Assembly (NCBI GenBank): GCA_003649205.1
Contig: QMRC01000004.1
Location: forward strand, 32,001 to 96,000
Direction: 5' to 3'
From: Thermoprotei archaeon
GTDB lineage: Archaea; Thermoproteota; Thermoprotei; Thermoproteales; B15-G16
Length of the DNA: 64,000 bases
The notes beneath the pieces were generated by a model that ran no database searches, was not told the DNA's origin, and saw only the letters and a list, made by a program, of their open reading frames with translations. Positions within the stretch are counted from its first letter, which is position 1. Each line of letters opens with the position of its first letter. A program made the position numbers and the translations under genes. Below are positions 1 to 38,613 of the stretch, piece by piece.

Positions 1-689
1 CACCTCCTAACAACTTCAATACCAATAACCTTACCATCACGAAGCTTAATCACCCTATCACAGAACCTAATTAGCTCAAGGTTGTGAGTAACCATGACAA
101 TGGTCTTACCGAGATCATCACACAACCTCCTAAACAACGAAACAACAATCTCAGTATTCTTAACATCGAGATTACCAGTAGGCTCATCAGCGAGAATAAT
201 GGGGGGATCATTCATGAGGGCTCTAGCAATAGCAACTCTCTGTTGCTCACCAGAAGACAATTCAGTAGCTCTCTTATGAGCCTTATCACCAAGACCAACG
301 ATCTCAAGAAGCTTGAGAGCACGTTCCCTCCTAATACGTCTAGGTACACCGGCAATAGCAGCAGGTAACTCGACATTCTCAACAACAGAGAGGTAAGGAA
401 CTAGGTTAAAGGTCTGAAATACAAAACCAATAGTCCTATTCCTAAACACACTCAACTCCTTAGAGCTAAGTCTAGGAACCTCAACACCAGCAACGTAAAC
501 AGTACCCTTCGTAGGCTTATCAAGACCACCAATGATATTCAGGAGAGTAGTCTTACCAGAACCGGAAGGGCCAACAACAGCAACAAACTCACCCTCATCA
601 ACCGAGAAACTAACACCCTTAAGAGCAGGGTACTCAAAGCGACCAGATCTATAGATCTTCCAAACATCCTCAACCACTATAATGGGCAT
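1..689 (-). CDS. ABC transporter ATP-binding protein (LolD/MacB-like), 3' end beyond window
   Basis: Minus-strand reading from ATG at 689: MPIIVVEDVWKIYRSG..., Walker [31 protein letters not shown]; open to window edge. Not in ORF track. Confidence 0.88.
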   Translation of the reverse strand, partial: MPIIVVEDVWKIYRSGRFEYPALKGVSFSVDEGEFVAVVGPSGSGKTTLLNIIGGLDKPTKGTVYVAGVEVPRLSSKELSVFRNRTIGFVFQTFNLVPYLSVVENVELPAAIAGVPRRIRRERALKLLEIVGLGDKAHKRATELSSGEQQRVAIARALMNDPPIILADEPTGNLDVKNTEIVVSLFRRLCDDLGKTIVMVTHNLELIRFCDRVIKLRDGKVIGIEVVRR

Positions 690-33947: not shown

Positions 33948-34586
33948 CTACGCCCAGCTAACAATTATCGTAGGTACATCCCTCATCACAACATGTGATC
34001 TCGTAGGTTCTCTTCCAAGTAGTTGAAGTGATATACCTGTAATAAACCCACGAACAAAGTGAGTAAGGACACCATTTGCACCAGTGAACCTAATTATGAC
34101 CTCACGATCACTAAGAGTGATATCCATTGAACCAAAACCCTGTGCACTAAGGTACTTCAGACAGAGAGAAACTACATCCTGTATCCTACCAAGTACTAAC
34201 GATACCTTTTTCCTAAGGTACTCACCGAGAGAGATACCGTACTCAAGACCTATGTAGTACAGAATAGCATCTGCTCCAGTACCCGCTCTCCTCCTCAACC
34301 TATGAAAAGCATTAATCAGTACCTTAGCAGGAAATCTAATGACTCGAGACCTAGTAACTCTCCTACCAGATAGGTACCTATAGCAACCCCTCAAGGACCT
34401 CTCAACAGCATCTGGATGTGAGAGTACAGAGACGATGTAGTAGTTCCTCTCCTTTTCAATACAGAGGTAAGGTAGTTCAGACACACTAGTGAGCAAGTTA
34501 ATGATGAAGGTACGTACATCAGAGAAGCTACTGAAGAACAGGGTCACACACCTAAGATTACTCTCCAAGGTACTCACCAATACCAA
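33948..34586 (-). CDS. V4R-like ligand-binding domain protein
   Basis: ILYYIGLEYG, AQGFG, HFVRGFITG resemble the V4R core. Confidence 0.55.
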   Translation of the reverse strand: MVLVSTLESNLRCVTLFFSSFSDVRTFIINLLTSVSELPYLCIEKERNYYIVSVLSHPDAVERSLRGCYRYLSGRRVTRSRVIRFPAKVLINAFHRLRRRAGTGADAILYYIGLEYGISLGEYLRKKVSLVLGRIQDVVSLCLKYLSAQGFGSMDITLSDREVIIRFTGANGVLTHFVRGFITGISLQLLGREPTRSHVVMRDVPTIIVSWA

Positions 34587-34836
34587 GCATCTTCACTAAC
34601 TTCCTGAACTCACTTAGGAAAGCAAGACCACGTTCAGTAGGTCTAAAGATCCTAAGTCTACCACTATCAATCTCCCTAAGAAGACCTAGCTTCAGCAGGT
34701 AATTCACGTACTCTCTAGTCCTCGAAAATGGTAAACCAACATAGTACTGAATTCGAGTAATCGTTGGCTTATCGAGAACAGCAGCCGCCTCAACTACCTT
34801 AGCCATTATAACTAAGGAATCACGCCTCTGCCTCAT
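34558..34836 (-). CDS. Winged-helix DNA-binding protein
   Basis: TITRIQYYVGL...YVNYLLKLGLL...FRPTERG. Confidence 0.8.
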   Translation of the reverse strand: MRQRRDSLVIMAKVVEAAAVLDKPTITRIQYYVGLPFSRTREYVNYLLKLGLLREIDSGRLRIFRPTERGLAFLSEFRKLVKMLGIGEYLGE

Positions 34837-35435
34837 AAACCCTCAACACCTCCAATAACGACGTATGCTCTCCACCATGGTATAGTGCTTTCATATTTGA
34901 CACCTAGCAGACGGTAGCCAAGTATTGAAAATACTTGGTGTTCAACTACGAATTCGAGGTCTTCTAATCTAATGCCCCCTCTACCGTAGCACCTTAGTCT
35001 AGGGAGTAGAACCTTGGCTTTCTCCTTAATGTGATCGTATACGTTCTGTGTCATTTCAACAAATTTACTAATCTCTTCCTCAAGTTCTAGCTCGATCATC
35101 TTCACTTCATCGCTCGTTATGAATGGTATTGCTAAATCGTACTTTTTCTCAACTCTAAAGCTACTGAGCTGTGTTACTAATTCTCTTACAACACCATGTT
35201 CCTTCAACACCTTGAGGTGCTTGTACACGGTAGGTGGTGTGAGGTTAAGTGTATCAGCTATCTCCCTTAAGGTTAATGGCCCATAGAGAGCCAGGAGCGC
35301 AATTATTGCCTTCTTAGTTCCCAGAGTGAAGTCATGCCTAAACGGTGTTTTGTGTTCTGGTGTAAATGAGCCTGTACCACGTATTGATACTAGTACCTTG
35401 TTGAAATCAATAGGTATTCGAGACCTCGAAACCAT
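34833..35435 (-). CDS. ArsR-type HTH transcriptional regulator
   Basis: GPLTLREIADTLNLTPPTVYKHLKVLKEHGVV. Confidence 0.8.
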   Translation of the reverse strand: MVSRSRIPIDFNKVLVSIRGTGSFTPEHKTPFRHDFTLGTKKAIIALLALYGPLTLREIADTLNLTPPTVYKHLKVLKEHGVVRELVTQLSSFRVEKKYDLAIPFITSDEVKMIELELEEEISKFVEMTQNVYDHIKEKAKVLLPRLRCYGRGGIRLEDLEFVVEHQVFSILGYRLLGVKYESTIPWWRAYVVIGGVEGL

Positions 35436-35445
35436 ACGAATCCCC

Positions 35446-35485
35446 AGTTAACCTCCAAGTTAACAAAGTTAGCCTTTAAGTTAAT
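35446..35485. promoter_or_regulatory. Four AGTTAR repeats around the regulator TATA box
   Basis: AGTTAAC 35446, AGTTAAC 35458, AGTTAGC 35467, AGTTAAT 35479; minus-strand CTTAAAGG at 35473-35480. Confidence 0.5.
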
Positions 35486-35604
35486 AACTTTTTCTGAATA
35501 TTCCTAAATACTATACTTACATTATATTCGCATCCATTTGCTCTATGTCCCTACCTGTGATCCTGTTTCAATTGAGTGATCTAGTGTCTTAGTGGGTGTA
35601 GTAC

Positions 35605-35679
35605 ATGAAGGTGAGGGTTCGTAAGGTGAAGAAGTACAGGTCCTGTGCAAACATATTCTGCACAATAGTCTGGGTATAA
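35605..35679 (+). CDS. Putative RiPP precursor peptide MKVRVRKVKKYRSCANIFCTIVWV
   Basis: ATG..TAA ORF with GGGTG RBS-like upstream; ends 14 nt before the rSAM/SPASM gene. Confidence 0.7.
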   Translation: MKVRVRKVKKYRSCANIFCTIVWV

Positions 35680-35693
35680 GCTAGGGTGACTGC

Positions 35694-36929
35694 GTGATGC
35701 ATGTCGCTCCTTGGTGTTTAACTACTTCTCTTTCTTCATCCATGGTCATCATCTATAATATGTTGAGTGGTGATTATGCTCTTGTTGAGGGGGATTTTCT
35801 TGAGAAGGTCCTTTGTGATGAGGTTTCTCCTGATGATAGCGATCTGAGGATGTTGATTGATGGTGGTTTTGTTGTTTCTGATTTCTCTTCCTCACCGCCT
35901 AGAGGTGTTCGTGAGTTCTCTGTGTTTGTTTCTGTTACTTCGCGATGTAATTTGAGGTGTGTGTACTGCTATGAGTCTTTTAGGTCTGGTGTTGATATGT
36001 CTCTTGATGTTGCTTCTAAGGTACTTGATTGGTTGTCCAGTGTGCTCTCTGGAGGTGGTTATGAGAGGTTAGTCTTTGTTCACTATGGTGGTGAACCTCT
36101 TTTAAATCCTGGTGTCATTACTTACCTTGGTCGTGAAGTTAGGAAATTGTGCTCTAGATTAGGTGTTGAGTGTGTTGAGTGTTTAGTTACCAATGGTACT
36201 CTACTTAGTGGGTTCTCTAGTACTGCTCGTGAGTTTATTGATTTTGTTCAGGTAACTATTGATGGTGTTGGTTTGGTACACGATGTTAGGAGACCGTATG
36301 TCGATGGTAGGGGGAGTTTTTGTGATGTTATTAGTGGTCTCTTGTCTGCTCTTGATCATGGATTGAGGGGATGCATTAGGGTTAATGTCGATAGAGGGAA
36401 TGTAGATCGTGTACCTGAGCTACTTCACTACCTAAGAGATCTGGGTGTTTACAGGAAGATCAACTACATTGGTTTCTCCCCGGTATATCCTCCTCAAGCT
36501 ACTTCCACGTACTCTCAAGCGTTATCGCTTGATGAGTGGTGTACTCACTTCCTAAAGCTACTGAGATGCGCTGTTGATCTTGGTTTTCGTATTCAGCCTC
36601 CACCTGCAGGTGGTGGTTGTACATTTGGTTCAGGTGCGGCTATTGATGAGAGAGGTAGTGTCTATCCATGTCCTGGATTCCTTGGTATTGAAGCTATGTG
36701 CTTGGGTAGGATTAGTGGTTATTGGTGTCTTCCCAGAGTTGAAGTTAAGGCTTGTGAAGACTGTAGGTTTAAGTGGATTTGTGAAGGTGGTTGTAGGTAC
36801 CTAGCATATGTCACTGGTCGTGGTTTGAATGAGAGGTACTGCCTAAAGCCATATTACGAGCGAGTTTTGGAGGAGCATGTTAGGTTATTCGTTAAGTCTG
36901 TTGAGGGGTCTGAAGGTGGGAGTTGTTAA
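35694..36929 (+). CDS. Radical SAM/SPASM peptide-maturase-like enzyme
   Basis: CNLRCVYC, YGGEPLL, TNG, IDG; SPASM GCTF...VYPC...CEDCRFKWICEGGC...YC; RRE-like N-terminus. Confidence 0.9.
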   Translation: MMHVAPWCLTTSLSSSMVIIYNMLSGDYALVEGDFLEKVLCDEVSPDDSDLRMLIDGGFVVSDFSSSPPRGVREFSVFVSVTSRCNLRCVYCYESFRSGVDMSLDVASKVLDWLSSVLSGGGYERLVFVHYGGEPLLNPGVITYLGREVRKLCSRLGVECVECLVTNGTLLSGFSSTAREFIDFVQVTIDGVGLVHDVRRPYVDGRGSFCDVISGLLSALDHGLRGCIRVNVDRGNVDRVPELLHYLRDLGVYRKINYIGFSPVYPPQATSTYSQALSLDEWCTHFLKLLRCAVDLGFRIQPPPAGGGCTFGSGAAIDERGSVYPCPGFLGIEAMCLGRISGYWCLPRVEVKACEDCRFKWICEGGCRYLAYVTGRGLNERYCLKPYYERVLEEHVRLFVKSVEGSEGGSC

Positions 36930-37000
36930 CGCGCCCGACGGAGATCCCCTCATCGCTGGGAACAATGCCCCTCTCAGGGATCTCTACTTGGTGTCTAGCT
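36921..37000 (-). ncRNA. K-turn hairpin with ACA box, H/ACA-like sRNA candidate
   Basis: gagatccC-TGA...GATGA-ggggatctc stem with ACA 14 nt after the stem base; lower stem weak. Confidence 0.5.
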
Positions 37001-37016
37001 GCCGTGTTTAATACCT

Positions 37017-37739
37017 TTACTCAATTCCTAGGGTTTTCTTAATGAACTTTCTCATAGCTTCCTTCCCCTCAGTTGTTAGTACCTCAAGTAGCTTAGCTAT
37101 AGGTACTTCGTTCAGTACCTTGAAGAATGTCTTTGTGGCTAGGTACCTACCATCTGTCTCTACCTCTATGTCTCGACAGACGTTCCATAGCTTATCCTGT
37201 ATGCTTGACATGAAGTTTGCATCTATGCTGTCAGCTAGGTGAACTATCTCTGATTCAATCATTGTGAAGGGTACTGTACCGTGTACTTCAGCTAGACACC
37301 TAACTAATCTCTCTGGTGCACCTCTGTGTGCTAGTTCAGCAATTATGGTGAATTCATGGCTTAGGTACCAGTCATCTCTTGGTCTGTAACCACCTGTGAC
37401 TGGGTCTCTCTCATATTGGTAGTACTTGAAGATGTCGTGTAGTATTGCTGTTGCTATTGTTAGGTCTAGGTCAACACTTATTGAGTACACATTGCGGTAT
37501 ATCTTCGCTATGGATTCGCTGATTAGGACTACGCTTAGTGTGTGGTCGATTAGTCCACCAGGGTATGCGTGGTGTTTTCTTGGTGCTGCTGGTGATTCCT
37601 CGAGTGTTATCTTTGGTTGTACGTTGCAGAATGTTATTCTCGGGTTTGTTAGTATGCTTATGACTACGTCTCTTATAGCTGGATCTCGTACTTCATGAGC
37701 TTTCTCGAGTAGGTGCTTGAGCTTACTCCTCGTGTCCAT
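37017..37739 (-). CDS. HD-domain phosphohydrolase
   Basis: HHAYPGGLIDHT, ILHDIFK, HLAD. Confidence 0.85.
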   Translation of the reverse strand: MDTRSKLKHLLEKAHEVRDPAIRDVVISILTNPRITFCNVQPKITLEESPAAPRKHHAYPGGLIDHTLSVVLISESIAKIYRNVYSISVDLDLTIATAILHDIFKYYQYERDPVTGGYRPRDDWYLSHEFTIIAELAHRGAPERLVRCLAEVHGTVPFTMIESEIVHLADSIDANFMSSIQDKLWNVCRDIEVETDGRYLATKTFFKVLNEVPIAKLLEVLTTEGKEAMRKFIKKTLGIE

Positions 37740-37791
37740 GGTCTCGATTTACCTTAGTCTTAATACTGTGTGGTAATTAGGTTTTTGGTGT

Positions 37792-38613
37792 ATGTGTTGT
37801 GTGATGGTTGATGTTGTTTTGCTTACGAAGAATTCTCTATCTAGTGTTGGTGAGCGTATTCTGAAGCTTTGTTTACGTTCTCTGTACCTAAATGTTCCTG
37901 TTCATAGGTTAATTGTTGTTGATGGTGGATCTACTGATGGTACTGTTGAGTTCGTATCTAGGTACCCTAGGGTTGAGGTTGTCTATGACTACGGTACTAG
38001 GGCTACAGCTAGGTGCTTGGGTCTAAGGTTGTGTGATTGTGAGTACGTTCTTTTTCTTGACTGCGATGTGGTGTTGTGTAGGGATTGGTTTCGTAGAGCT
38101 TTTCGCTACTTCTCTAATTCTCGTGTTGGTGCTGTTGAGGGTTATCCACTACACATCGTTTCGAGTGGTGAGTATAGATTTGCTGTTGCTAGGTCTAGGT
38201 TCAGAGGTATTTTCCGTAGTGAGTTGGTAGAGGGTAAGAGGGCGTTTACAGGGGATACCCTGATTAGGAAGGTTGCTGTTGAGGGTATCTCTATTCCGAG
38301 CTATCTCCACGTATATGAGGATGAGTACATTAGGTGCTGGGTTGAGTCGAGAGGCTTCCTCTGGTTGAAGGTTCGTGACCCATATTGCTACCACTTTACA
38401 CAGTACTATCGACCCATAGATGGCTACTACTCAGGTTACGTACTAGCTAAGAGACGTGGGGTAAGTGCGATATCACTTTTAAGAAGTACTGTACTCGACA
38501 TACTACTCTCACCAGCAGCTCTTAGTCTAAGGGATATGAGTAGGATTCTACGGTACGATATTGAGAAGCTTCGTGGCGTTCTCTACGCTAAACTTAAAGA
38601 GCGTAGTAGCTAG
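37792..38613 (+). CDS. Glycosyltransferase family 2
   Basis: VVDGGSTDGT, FLDCD, YED. Confidence 0.88.
   Translation: MCCVMVDVVLLTKNSLSSVGERILKLCLRSLYLNVPVHRLIVVDGGSTDGTVEFVSRYPRVEVVYDYGTRATARCLGLRLCDCEYVLFLDCDVVLCRDWFRRAFRYFSNSRVGAVEGYPLHIVSSGEYRFAVARSRFRGIFRSELVEGKRAFTGDTLIRKVAVEGISIPSYLHVYEDEYIRCWVESRGFLWLKVRDPYCYHFTQYYRPIDGYYSGYVLAKRRGVSAISLLRSTVLDILLSPAALSLRDMSRILRYDIEKLRGVLYAKLKERSS

Follow-up and report, generated by a model that had tools for sequence, protein, structure and literature searches.

Radical SAM (S-adenosylmethionine) enzymes that modify RiPPs (peptides made on the ribosome and then post-translationally modified) are well studied in bacteria; the archaeal ones are mostly predictions from genome mining. 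NxxcB joins the Cys of NxxC peptides to the beta-carbon of the Asn through a thioether, using radical SAM chemistry and an auxiliary cluster (PMC9389541), and CrpC of Methanococcus voltae, an archaeal radical SAM-SPASM enzyme with a RiPP recognition element (RRE), makes thioether (ranthionine) links on an adjacently encoded Cys-rich substrate, CrpA (PMC13692751). Archaeal RiPP clusters modified by radical SAM enzymes are widespread but uncharacterized, and genome mining has predicted them in bulk (PMC12144867); ranthipeptides were "only recently reported in archaea" (PMC13635244). By titles and abstract starts, the literature on archaeal radical SAM/SPASM RiPPs held nothing on peptides from Thermoproteota, and a search for "geopeptide" and for papers on the enzyme family treated here found neither. 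The locus that we describe lies in the window, a stretch of 64,000 nucleotides (nt) from a Thermoprotei archaeon (GCA_003649205.1, contig QMRC01000004.1, positions 32,001 to 96,000), where a 75-nt open reading frame (ORF) for a peptide of 24 amino acids (aa) directly precedes a radical SAM gene. Our computational analysis supports, as the probable reading, that the small ORF encodes the enzyme's own substrate and that the two are a RiPP precursor/maturase pair. The kind of system, in which an RRE-radical SAM-SPASM enzyme is paired with a short peptide containing Cys, is already well known from bacteria as a route to cross-linked peptides, and the locus would be an uncharacterized archaeal example of it. 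Its features are listed below, with enzyme residues counted from the ATG at 35697.

35594-35598, plus strand: GGGTG Shine-Dalgarno-like motif of the small ORF, six bases 5' of its ATG, with GGTG starting at -10; the same in the sister species
35605-35679, plus strand: candidate precursor peptide ORF, 24 aa, ATG start, TAA end at 35679, MKVRVRKVKKYRSCANIFCTIVWV
35684-35689, plus strand: Shine-Dalgarno-like GGGTGA in front of the radical SAM gene, with GGTG at -12 from ATG 35697 and at -9 from GTG 35694
35697-36929, plus strand: putative RRE-radical SAM-SPASM peptide maturase, 410 aa (411 aa from GTG 35694)
35697-35882, plus strand: predicted leader-recognition (RRE-like) domain, residues 1-62, three strands followed by two helices, net charge -9
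35946-35969, plus strand: CxxxCxxC radical SAM cluster motif (C84, C88, C91), invariant in 78 aligned homologues
36618-36842, plus strand: SPASM region with a seven-Cys motif (C308, C325, C353, C356, C362, C366, C382), located by a regular expression on the protein

The original prediction, made from the letters alone, had described a 75-nt ORF with a basic N-terminus, a hydrophobic core, two Cys and a penultimate Trp, preceded by its own GGGTG ribosome-binding motif and ending 14 nt before the radical SAM gene. All of this is present at the positions given, with the 14 nt applying to the GTG start at 35694 and 17 nt separating the stop from the ATG at 35697. The N-terminal part of the peptide is polybasic, with seven Lys or Arg and no acidic residue among residues 1-13, the hydrophobic C-terminal part carries C14, N16-x-x-C19 and W23, and the calculated pI is 10.6. 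An in-frame TAG at 35599-35601, one codon 5' of the ATG, means that the ORF cannot extend further upstream. Since the assembly, which is 94% complete, yielded no small-subunit rRNA from which the 3' end of the 16S and its anti-Shine-Dalgarno sequence could be read, we measured the enrichment of GGTG instead, and found it at -14 to -4 of 314 of 1304 long-ORF starts and, in the control interval from -44 to -34, at 41 of 1304, an enrichment of about eight-fold in this genome. Of the 1297 genome ORFs of at least 200 aa, 147 are preceded by an upstream ATG ORF of 20-60 aa whose end lies no more than 40 nt away; requiring in addition GGTG at Shine-Dalgarno distance leaves six, and requiring at least two Cys leaves five, the small ORF among them (two of the other four look zinc-ribbon-like by eye). 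In the 2.07-Mb genome, no other ATG ORF coding for 15-60 aa has at least five Lys or Arg in the first 12 residues together with CxxxxC, a count whose criteria were chosen after the peptide had been seen. No NCBIfam family matched it at E values up to 10, no similar peptide was found elsewhere in the genome (best other blastp-short E 3.4), and the interval 35300-35800 held no known RNA element at E up to 1.

The strongest argument that the small ORF is a gene comes, by sequence comparison, from what occupies its position in relatives. At nine of ten distant Thermoproteota loci that carry a homologue of the enzyme, a short Cys-containing ORF lies on the same strand directly upstream of the enzyme gene, ending anywhere from a 1-nt overlap with the enzyme start codon to 67 nt before it; at the tenth, the high-GC locus L099, we saw no convincing upstream candidate. 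The nearest enzymes of these loci are 30-38% identical to ours, and that of L102 is the nearest outside the genus (38%). The upstream ORFs are as follows.

L102, 1323-1421, reverse: MKSKVVVLERAAVDPNGICWTLCKIFCWLQVF
L103, 1335-1454, reverse: 39 aa, ends ...KIIILEKASLKVKESNFCGPYCSLVCGPFFTVPD
L104, 1275-1403: 42 aa, ends ...KIIILEREIIRIEEPNFIPPCKLFCGPIIASKKP
L105: 51 aa
L106, 1375-1446, reverse, and L107, 1360-1446: 23 aa, MQRKVVKLERKIGRCGYSPSWGE
L096: 38 aa, Cys-rich
L098: 55 aa, Cys-rich
Second locus of the same genome (G000:C1), 91813-91944: 43 aa; an internal Met gives MRSRVLVLERAKSTMLTEPNFFCGSFISPVRT

Shine-Dalgarno-like motifs precede the small ORFs of L102 (GGGTG), L103 (GGAGGTG) and L104 (AGGTGG), and the order in L102, a gene for a helix-turn-helix (HTH) protein on the minus strand followed by peptide and radical SAM genes, is that of the window. 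The precursors of L102, L103, L104, L106 and L107 (23-42 aa) have in common a leader of the form K/R-V/I-V/I-x-L-E-K/R and cores with N-F/G-x-C. When a profile was built from the peptides of L102, L103, L104 and L106 and run against the 27,682 small ORFs of the window's genome, the upstream ORF of the second locus ranked first (E 0.002), so the upstream ORFs of this clade are real genes that make up a family. Cys occurs in all of the related archaeal precursors, and Trp is not found in every one. Our peptide's MKVRV... start had looked akin to the MKVVVAPKV... and ...VVVLER... leaders of other precursors, and homology on this basis was dropped when neither the profile nor blastp-short supported it; with no recognizable homology between the peptides, the relatives lend their support through gene order and composition. 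The expectation that homologues would be preceded by a peptide with a conserved basic leader and a CxxxxC/W pattern failed, as the distant precursors do not have it. The pair that had been proposed as a candidate new archaeal RiPP system does not stand by itself: it belongs to a sparse Thermoproteota set, and there is a second cluster in the same genome.

The enzyme belongs to the SPASM subfamily of the radical SAM superfamily. It reaches 41.8 bits with the Pfam model Radical_SAM (PF04055), for which the cut-off is 29.5, Fer4_12 is also matched, and the Pfam SPASM model gave no match at E 0.01 or better. Both the CxxxCxxC (C84/C88/C91) and the full SPASM Cys set that had been predicted are in place, the latter in the pattern C308-x11-G-x4-C325, C353xxC356x5C362x3C366 and C382, whose columns in the alignment of 78 homologues either do not vary or are conserved to at least 90%. 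In NCBIfam, the models that fit it best all describe radical SAM/SPASM maturases of peptides, and the enzyme scores far below the curated cut-off of every one: the geopeptide maturase TIGR04280 (E 2.9e-44, 151.7 bits against 400), CefB NF038107 (E 3.7e-36, 124.9 bits against 600) and PapB NF047865 (E 1.1e-30, 107 bits against 340). Lower in the ranking are TIGR04463, Clo7bot, nif11-type, FlmE/OhkG, DynA (1.2e-21), QhpD, DarW (3.1e-17), the cyclophane enzyme YhhB (6.8e-16) and others. With the SCIFF maturase model TIGR03974 the enzyme reaches 57.2 bits against 425. Because it falls below the cut-off of every named family, we count the enzyme in none of them. An AlphaFold model built on the 78-homologue alignment (predicted local distance difference test, pLDDT, 93.0; predicted template modelling score 0.91) matches the thioether synthase CteB (5why_A) with a Foldseek E of 7.9e-22 and a VIA Z of 29.0 over 375 aligned residues (root mean square deviation 5.9, model 4..400 on chain 1..448). 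Other matches in the PDB are anSME (Z 27.8, model 72..405), ChlB (Z 26.5), TigE (Z 24.0, model 1..403) and SuiB (about 20.5), and CteB is the only strong PDB match by sequence (E 3.4e-16).

The extra N-terminus ascribed to the enzyme is real, with 83 residues before CxxxCxxC: the sister species has ACG in place of an internal ATG at 35743 (MVIIYNM...), which puts the start of the gene at 35694 or 35697. The median length of this part in the 78 homologues is 97.5 residues, and the enzyme lacks about 14 residues of linker that its relatives have after the GFVV strand. Residues 1-72 were folded alone (pLDDT 89.9) and the domain model was compared with 48,161 representative PDB chains with no pre-filter. 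The four best matches are all RREs, namely the N-terminus of TigE (Z 6.4), the lasso peptide protein TbiB1 with leader (6.3), lasso B1 with leader (5.6) and the RRE of PbtF (4.4), and each of the only three chains with Z of at least 5 is an RRE; PqqD (Z 3.7), NisB, MibB, MccB, LynD and CteB follow lower down. These Z values are modest in absolute terms, as expected for a domain of 60 residues, and their ranking is clear. The RRE fold that had been suggested for the N-terminus is thus borne out by what the domain, folded alone, resembles best; on this model residues 1-62 are an RRE, and leader binding is predicted. The domain has two Lys or Arg and 11 Asp or Glu in 62 residues, and its net charge of -9 places it among the three most acidic of the 78 homologues (median -2). 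In the sister species the domain has a net charge of -7, and the peptide charges are +7 in the window and +6 in the sister. Over ten peptide/enzyme pairs the charge of the peptide and that of the domain are inversely correlated (r = -0.81, p 0.005, kinship ignored). Charge complementarity fits docking of the peptide on this enzyme and is suggestive of it.

The locus is known in one other species (L001 = L042 = L043), whose enzyme is about 90% identical. The only close homologue thus has the small ORF intact and of the same length, MKVKVRKVKKYRSCANIFCDIVWV, which, with the short Cys-containing ORFs of nine of the ten distant loci, answers the call for a small ORF upstream of homologues. The two small ORFs differ at seven of 75 nt, distributed 1/2/4 over codon positions 1/2/3, and of the five changed codons three are synonymous, one gives R4K and a fully replaced one gives T20D; Cys14, Asn16, Phe18, Cys19 and Trp23 are all kept, and the 14-nt spacer (35680-35693) is 100% identical. 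As evidence that the small ORF is a gene, this sequence conservation is weak. The enzyme itself is rare, with a match in two of 62 genomes of its order and a homologue at E 1e-30 or better in seven of 401 sampled genomes of the phylum, the window's genome included, none outside the genus exceeding 38% identity. Searches of 5.8 billion proteins and of 1.84 billion representatives found no enzyme between about 90% and 38% identity, metagenome contigs held one locus of the same haplotype as L001, and contigs of four sequencing runs held only the two known haplotypes (X1 may be the source of the window's DNA, and X3 and X4 cover parts only). As for the host, the label of hyperthermophilic crenarchaeote given to it beforehand was only partly checked, against the one close relative, titled "uncultured Thermoproteales archaeon"; growth at such temperatures is putative.

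Taken as a whole, the locus is best explained, from sequence, as a small RiPP module composed of a divergently encoded regulator of the ArsR type, the gene for a 24-aa precursor and a presumably co-transcribed RRE-radical SAM-SPASM maturase. Translation of the small ORF, binding of its leader, the chemistry and the function of the product are all steps that we infer. The basic N-terminal half, MKVRVRKVKKYRS (+7), would act as the leader and dock as a strand on the acidic recognition domain (net -9), and the hydrophobic C-terminal half, CANIFCTIVWV, would enter the active site. There the radical SAM cluster would generate a 5'-deoxyadenosyl radical that abstracts a hydrogen from an acceptor residue, and the thiol of a Cys bound to one of the auxiliary SPASM clusters would close a thioether ring, with 2 Da lost per link. 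By analogy, the pair most likely forms Cys thioether links: a thioether at Cys14 and/or Cys19 is likeliest because the nearest match in both structure and sequence is the thioether synthase CteB, because the strongest family models are maturases of Cys peptides and because every related archaeal precursor has Cys. The most specific candidate would be an Asn16-Cys19 link, by analogy with NxxC peptides, and Cys14 could take part in a second.

Several observations weigh against reading the two genes as precursor and maturase, or against parts of that reading. In the profile search that recovered the upstream ORF of the second locus, the peptide ranked 1727 with 0.3 bits, outside the set, and by blastp-short it was absent with four of five precursor queries and gave a four-residue match with the fifth. 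A quick, unfinished tree puts the enzyme and that of the sister species on a long branch (1.53) and groups them with the second enzyme and the L102-L104 clade with a weak SH-aLRT (Shimodaira-Hasegawa-like approximate likelihood ratio test) value of 80. The nucleotide identity of the small ORF to that of the sister species (90.7%) is that of the surrounding 4 kb on average (90.8%), at least three synonymous changes among five has a p of about 0.1 (binomial, our arithmetic), and everything that was searched holds only two independent haplotypes of the locus. The charge correlation falls to r = -0.66 (p 0.07, n = 8) when the window and its sister are left out, and as the test was devised post hoc, with the data already seen, it is suggestive only. 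A search for RNA data sets containing the locus found none, and the six ORFs scanned with Pfam (the radical SAM gene and five neighbours, 33948-38613) include no protease or transporter domain, just as the original prediction had said that no protease or exporter is adjacent. Lastly, the thioether chemistry is drawn from family resemblance alone, for an enzyme below all cut-offs.

One alternative is that the small ORF is a chance open frame in a 5' untranslated leader, with the substrate of the maturase encoded elsewhere, for example as the precursor of the second cluster or as a Cys-containing protein. Upstream ATG ORFs of 20-60 aa within 40 nt are indeed common (147/1297), the peptide is unlike the related precursors, its gene is no better conserved than its surroundings, and there is a known archaeal radical SAM-SPASM enzyme whose substrate is a larger Cys-rich protein (PMC13692751). 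Nevertheless, the Shine-Dalgarno motif brings this background down to 6/1297 and the two Cys to 5/1297, the frame stays open in the sister species with mostly synonymous or conservative changes, nine of ten related loci place their precursor at exactly the same position, the enzyme retains an RRE of an extreme acidity that matches the charge of the peptide, and the genome offers no other similar peptide (best other E 3.4), so we regard a chance frame as unlikely. Another alternative is a function for the ORF that does not involve the enzyme as modifier, in which it would be translated as a regulatory upstream ORF or as an independent small basic protein. A Shine-Dalgarno motif and a tight spacing of 14-17 nt could couple translation, and no leader protease or exporter is found nearby (six ORFs scanned); to this we give hardly any credence, as the enzyme has a dedicated leader-recognition domain, related loci show a precursor in the same position and the sister species keeps Cys14, Asn16, Cys19 and Trp23. 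If, on the other hand, the peptide is the substrate, the cross-link might be a carbon-carbon or ether bond to an aromatic residue (Trp23, Phe18 or Tyr11) of the streptide, darobactin or cyclophane type. The core residues F18 and W23 are conserved in the sister species, and the models of DynA (1.2e-21), DarW (3.1e-17) and YhhB (6.8e-16) do match the enzyme, but far more weakly than those of geopeptide maturase, CefB and PapB; moreover, CteB is the best match by structure and sequence while SuiB reaches a Z of only about 20.5, and the related archaeal precursors all have Cys and do not all have Trp, and we regard aromatic chemistry as unlikely. A precursor and its probably thioether-forming maturase are our preferred reading. 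A bolder version of it, which we hold to be rather doubtful, is that the pair is a fast-evolving offshoot of the minimal RiPPs found across Thermoproteota (precursors of 23-43 aa), in which leader and RRE would have co-evolved to a purely electrostatic code, and whose very small, heat-stable, thioether-cyclized product, which would need no protease or exporter of its own, would either work intracellularly or serve as a signal to the conserved, divergent ArsR-type regulator. If true, streptococcal radical SAM peptides with linked regulators would have a counterpart in archaea.

The regulator itself is encoded upstream, on the opposite strand:

34833-35435, minus strand: ArsR/HTH_20-type winged-helix regulator, 200 aa, divergent from the small ORF; Pfam HTH_20 3.6e-10, HTH_5 8.6e-10

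It is 36% identical over 99 aa to the divergent HTH protein of L102 (pairwise E 8e-20), and divergent ORFs of 182-190 aa that resemble it, as judged without an alignment, are present in L103 and L104. By these sequence comparisons the divergent ArsR-type regulator is a conserved companion of the putative peptide/enzyme pair, and what had been proposed as a minimal two-gene system keeps the pair and becomes, with the regulator, a unit of three genes. Between the regulator gene and the small ORF, there are two copies of AGTTAAC, at 35446-35452 and at 35458-35464, both with the palindrome GTTAAC inside, and after them AGTTAGC (35467-35473), all identical in the sister species; judging by sequence and position, the repeats could be an operator for the ArsR-type regulator. 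Further on, a 40-nt segment (35536-35575) just 5' of the conserved Shine-Dalgarno region is 70% identical between the two species, with flanks of 86-90%, which fits an unconstrained part of the 5' leader or a diverged promoter-proximal segment. Within the enzyme gene, all four sequencing runs, the possible source run of the window's DNA included, have T at 36370, where the window has G, and the T would turn Gly225 into Val, as in the sister species; this may be an assembly or polishing difference. Beyond the regulator, a 212-aa ORF on the minus strand (33948-34586) without a Pfam match at E 0.01 or better is 93.7% identical in nucleotides to its counterpart in the sister species, and shares 29 nt with the end of an HTH_45 gene for 92 aa (34558-34836, 98.2% identical to the sister). 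Downstream of the enzyme, the stretch with the ORFs 36877-37011 and 36923-37042 is 83.5% identical to the sister species, with four gap columns.

Outside the window, the same genome has a second RiPP-like cluster (G000:C1:91813-94945; L038, L095 and L108), in which the upstream ORF is followed by a radical SAM/SPASM enzyme and by overlapping ORFs that look, by eye, like an ATP-binding cassette (ABC) ATPase and a permease. Its enzyme, whose real start is at about 91955, is 34% identical to that of the window and scores 246.9 bits with CefB and 231.8 bits with the geopeptide maturase, both below cut-off. ABC-transporter-like genes, recognized by eye from Walker-type motifs, follow or adjoin five of the Thermoproteota loci and this second cluster; the window has none. 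In the quick tree, the sequences that carry a geopeptide maturase annotation fall in a clade apart, as does a bacterial clade with precursors downstream. In the latter, conserved short ORFs lie just downstream of the enzyme; those of Bacteroidota read MK[VI][VI]VAPKV...NC.GCN..[FL]CVP[DE], and others end in N..C motifs, sometimes in two copies. Their positions are as follows.

Single downstream ORFs: L003 4230-4337, L004 4230-4337, L016 4094-4210, L019 4244-4351, L020 4124-4231, L061 1813-1920
Paired downstream ORFs: L005 4263-4343 and 4495-4575; L071 4132-4224 and 4296-4388
Further loci with downstream ORFs: L007, L009, L062, L063, L067, L076

A set of 11 bacterial candidate precursors, together with the sister-species peptide, gave no match to NCBIfam at E up to 1.

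The locus is a compact Thermoproteota case, with a putative 24-aa substrate and a single 410-aa enzyme, for which the sister variant (R4K, T20D) is a natural control and to which the second, more conventional cluster of the same genome can be compared. Should the peptide turn out to be modified, it would provide a maturase adapted to heat that works with a very short leader, perhaps a rule of recognition by charge, and a handle on the role of such peptides in archaea; if it is not, it would be a measure of how misleading gene-order arguments for tiny ORFs can be.

Finally, we compared the pair with known systems. The maturase of SCIFF (thermocellin), CteB (PDB 5WGG/5WHY), has the same build, with an N-terminal RRE, a radical SAM barrel and a SPASM domain with two auxiliary clusters, and the title of its PDB entry refers to thioether bonds in a Cys-containing peptide. 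However, it is only 22-24% identical to our enzyme, the N-terminal part of which is shorter and lacks the linker after the GFVV strand, and the two Cys and 24 residues of our peptide are a further difference. The geopeptide maturase TIGR04280 and CefB are the best NCBIfam matches, yet far below cut-off; the five positions between C14 and C19 equal the spacing in the title of the CefB model, "Cys-every-fifth", a likeness by title. With the NxxC peptides of streptococci our peptide shares N16-I-F-C19, and NxxC also occurs in L102 (NGIC) and in the second cluster (NFFC); the hosts of NxxcB are bacterial, its systems are tied to quorum sensing, and the likeness is one of a four-residue motif only. 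CrpC, likened to our enzyme by description, acts on a Cys-rich protein rather than on a 24-aa peptide, and in a methanogen rather than in a member of the Thermoproteota. Within that phylum, L102, L103, L104, L106/L107 and the second cluster, a set without a name in NCBIfam, have the same gene order and a GGTG Shine-Dalgarno motif, with a divergent ArsR-type HTH gene in L102-L104, and the 23-aa precursor of L106/L107 is comparably short. Their precursors are mutually recognizable (E 0.002), whereas the peptide of the window, placed in the same position, is not.

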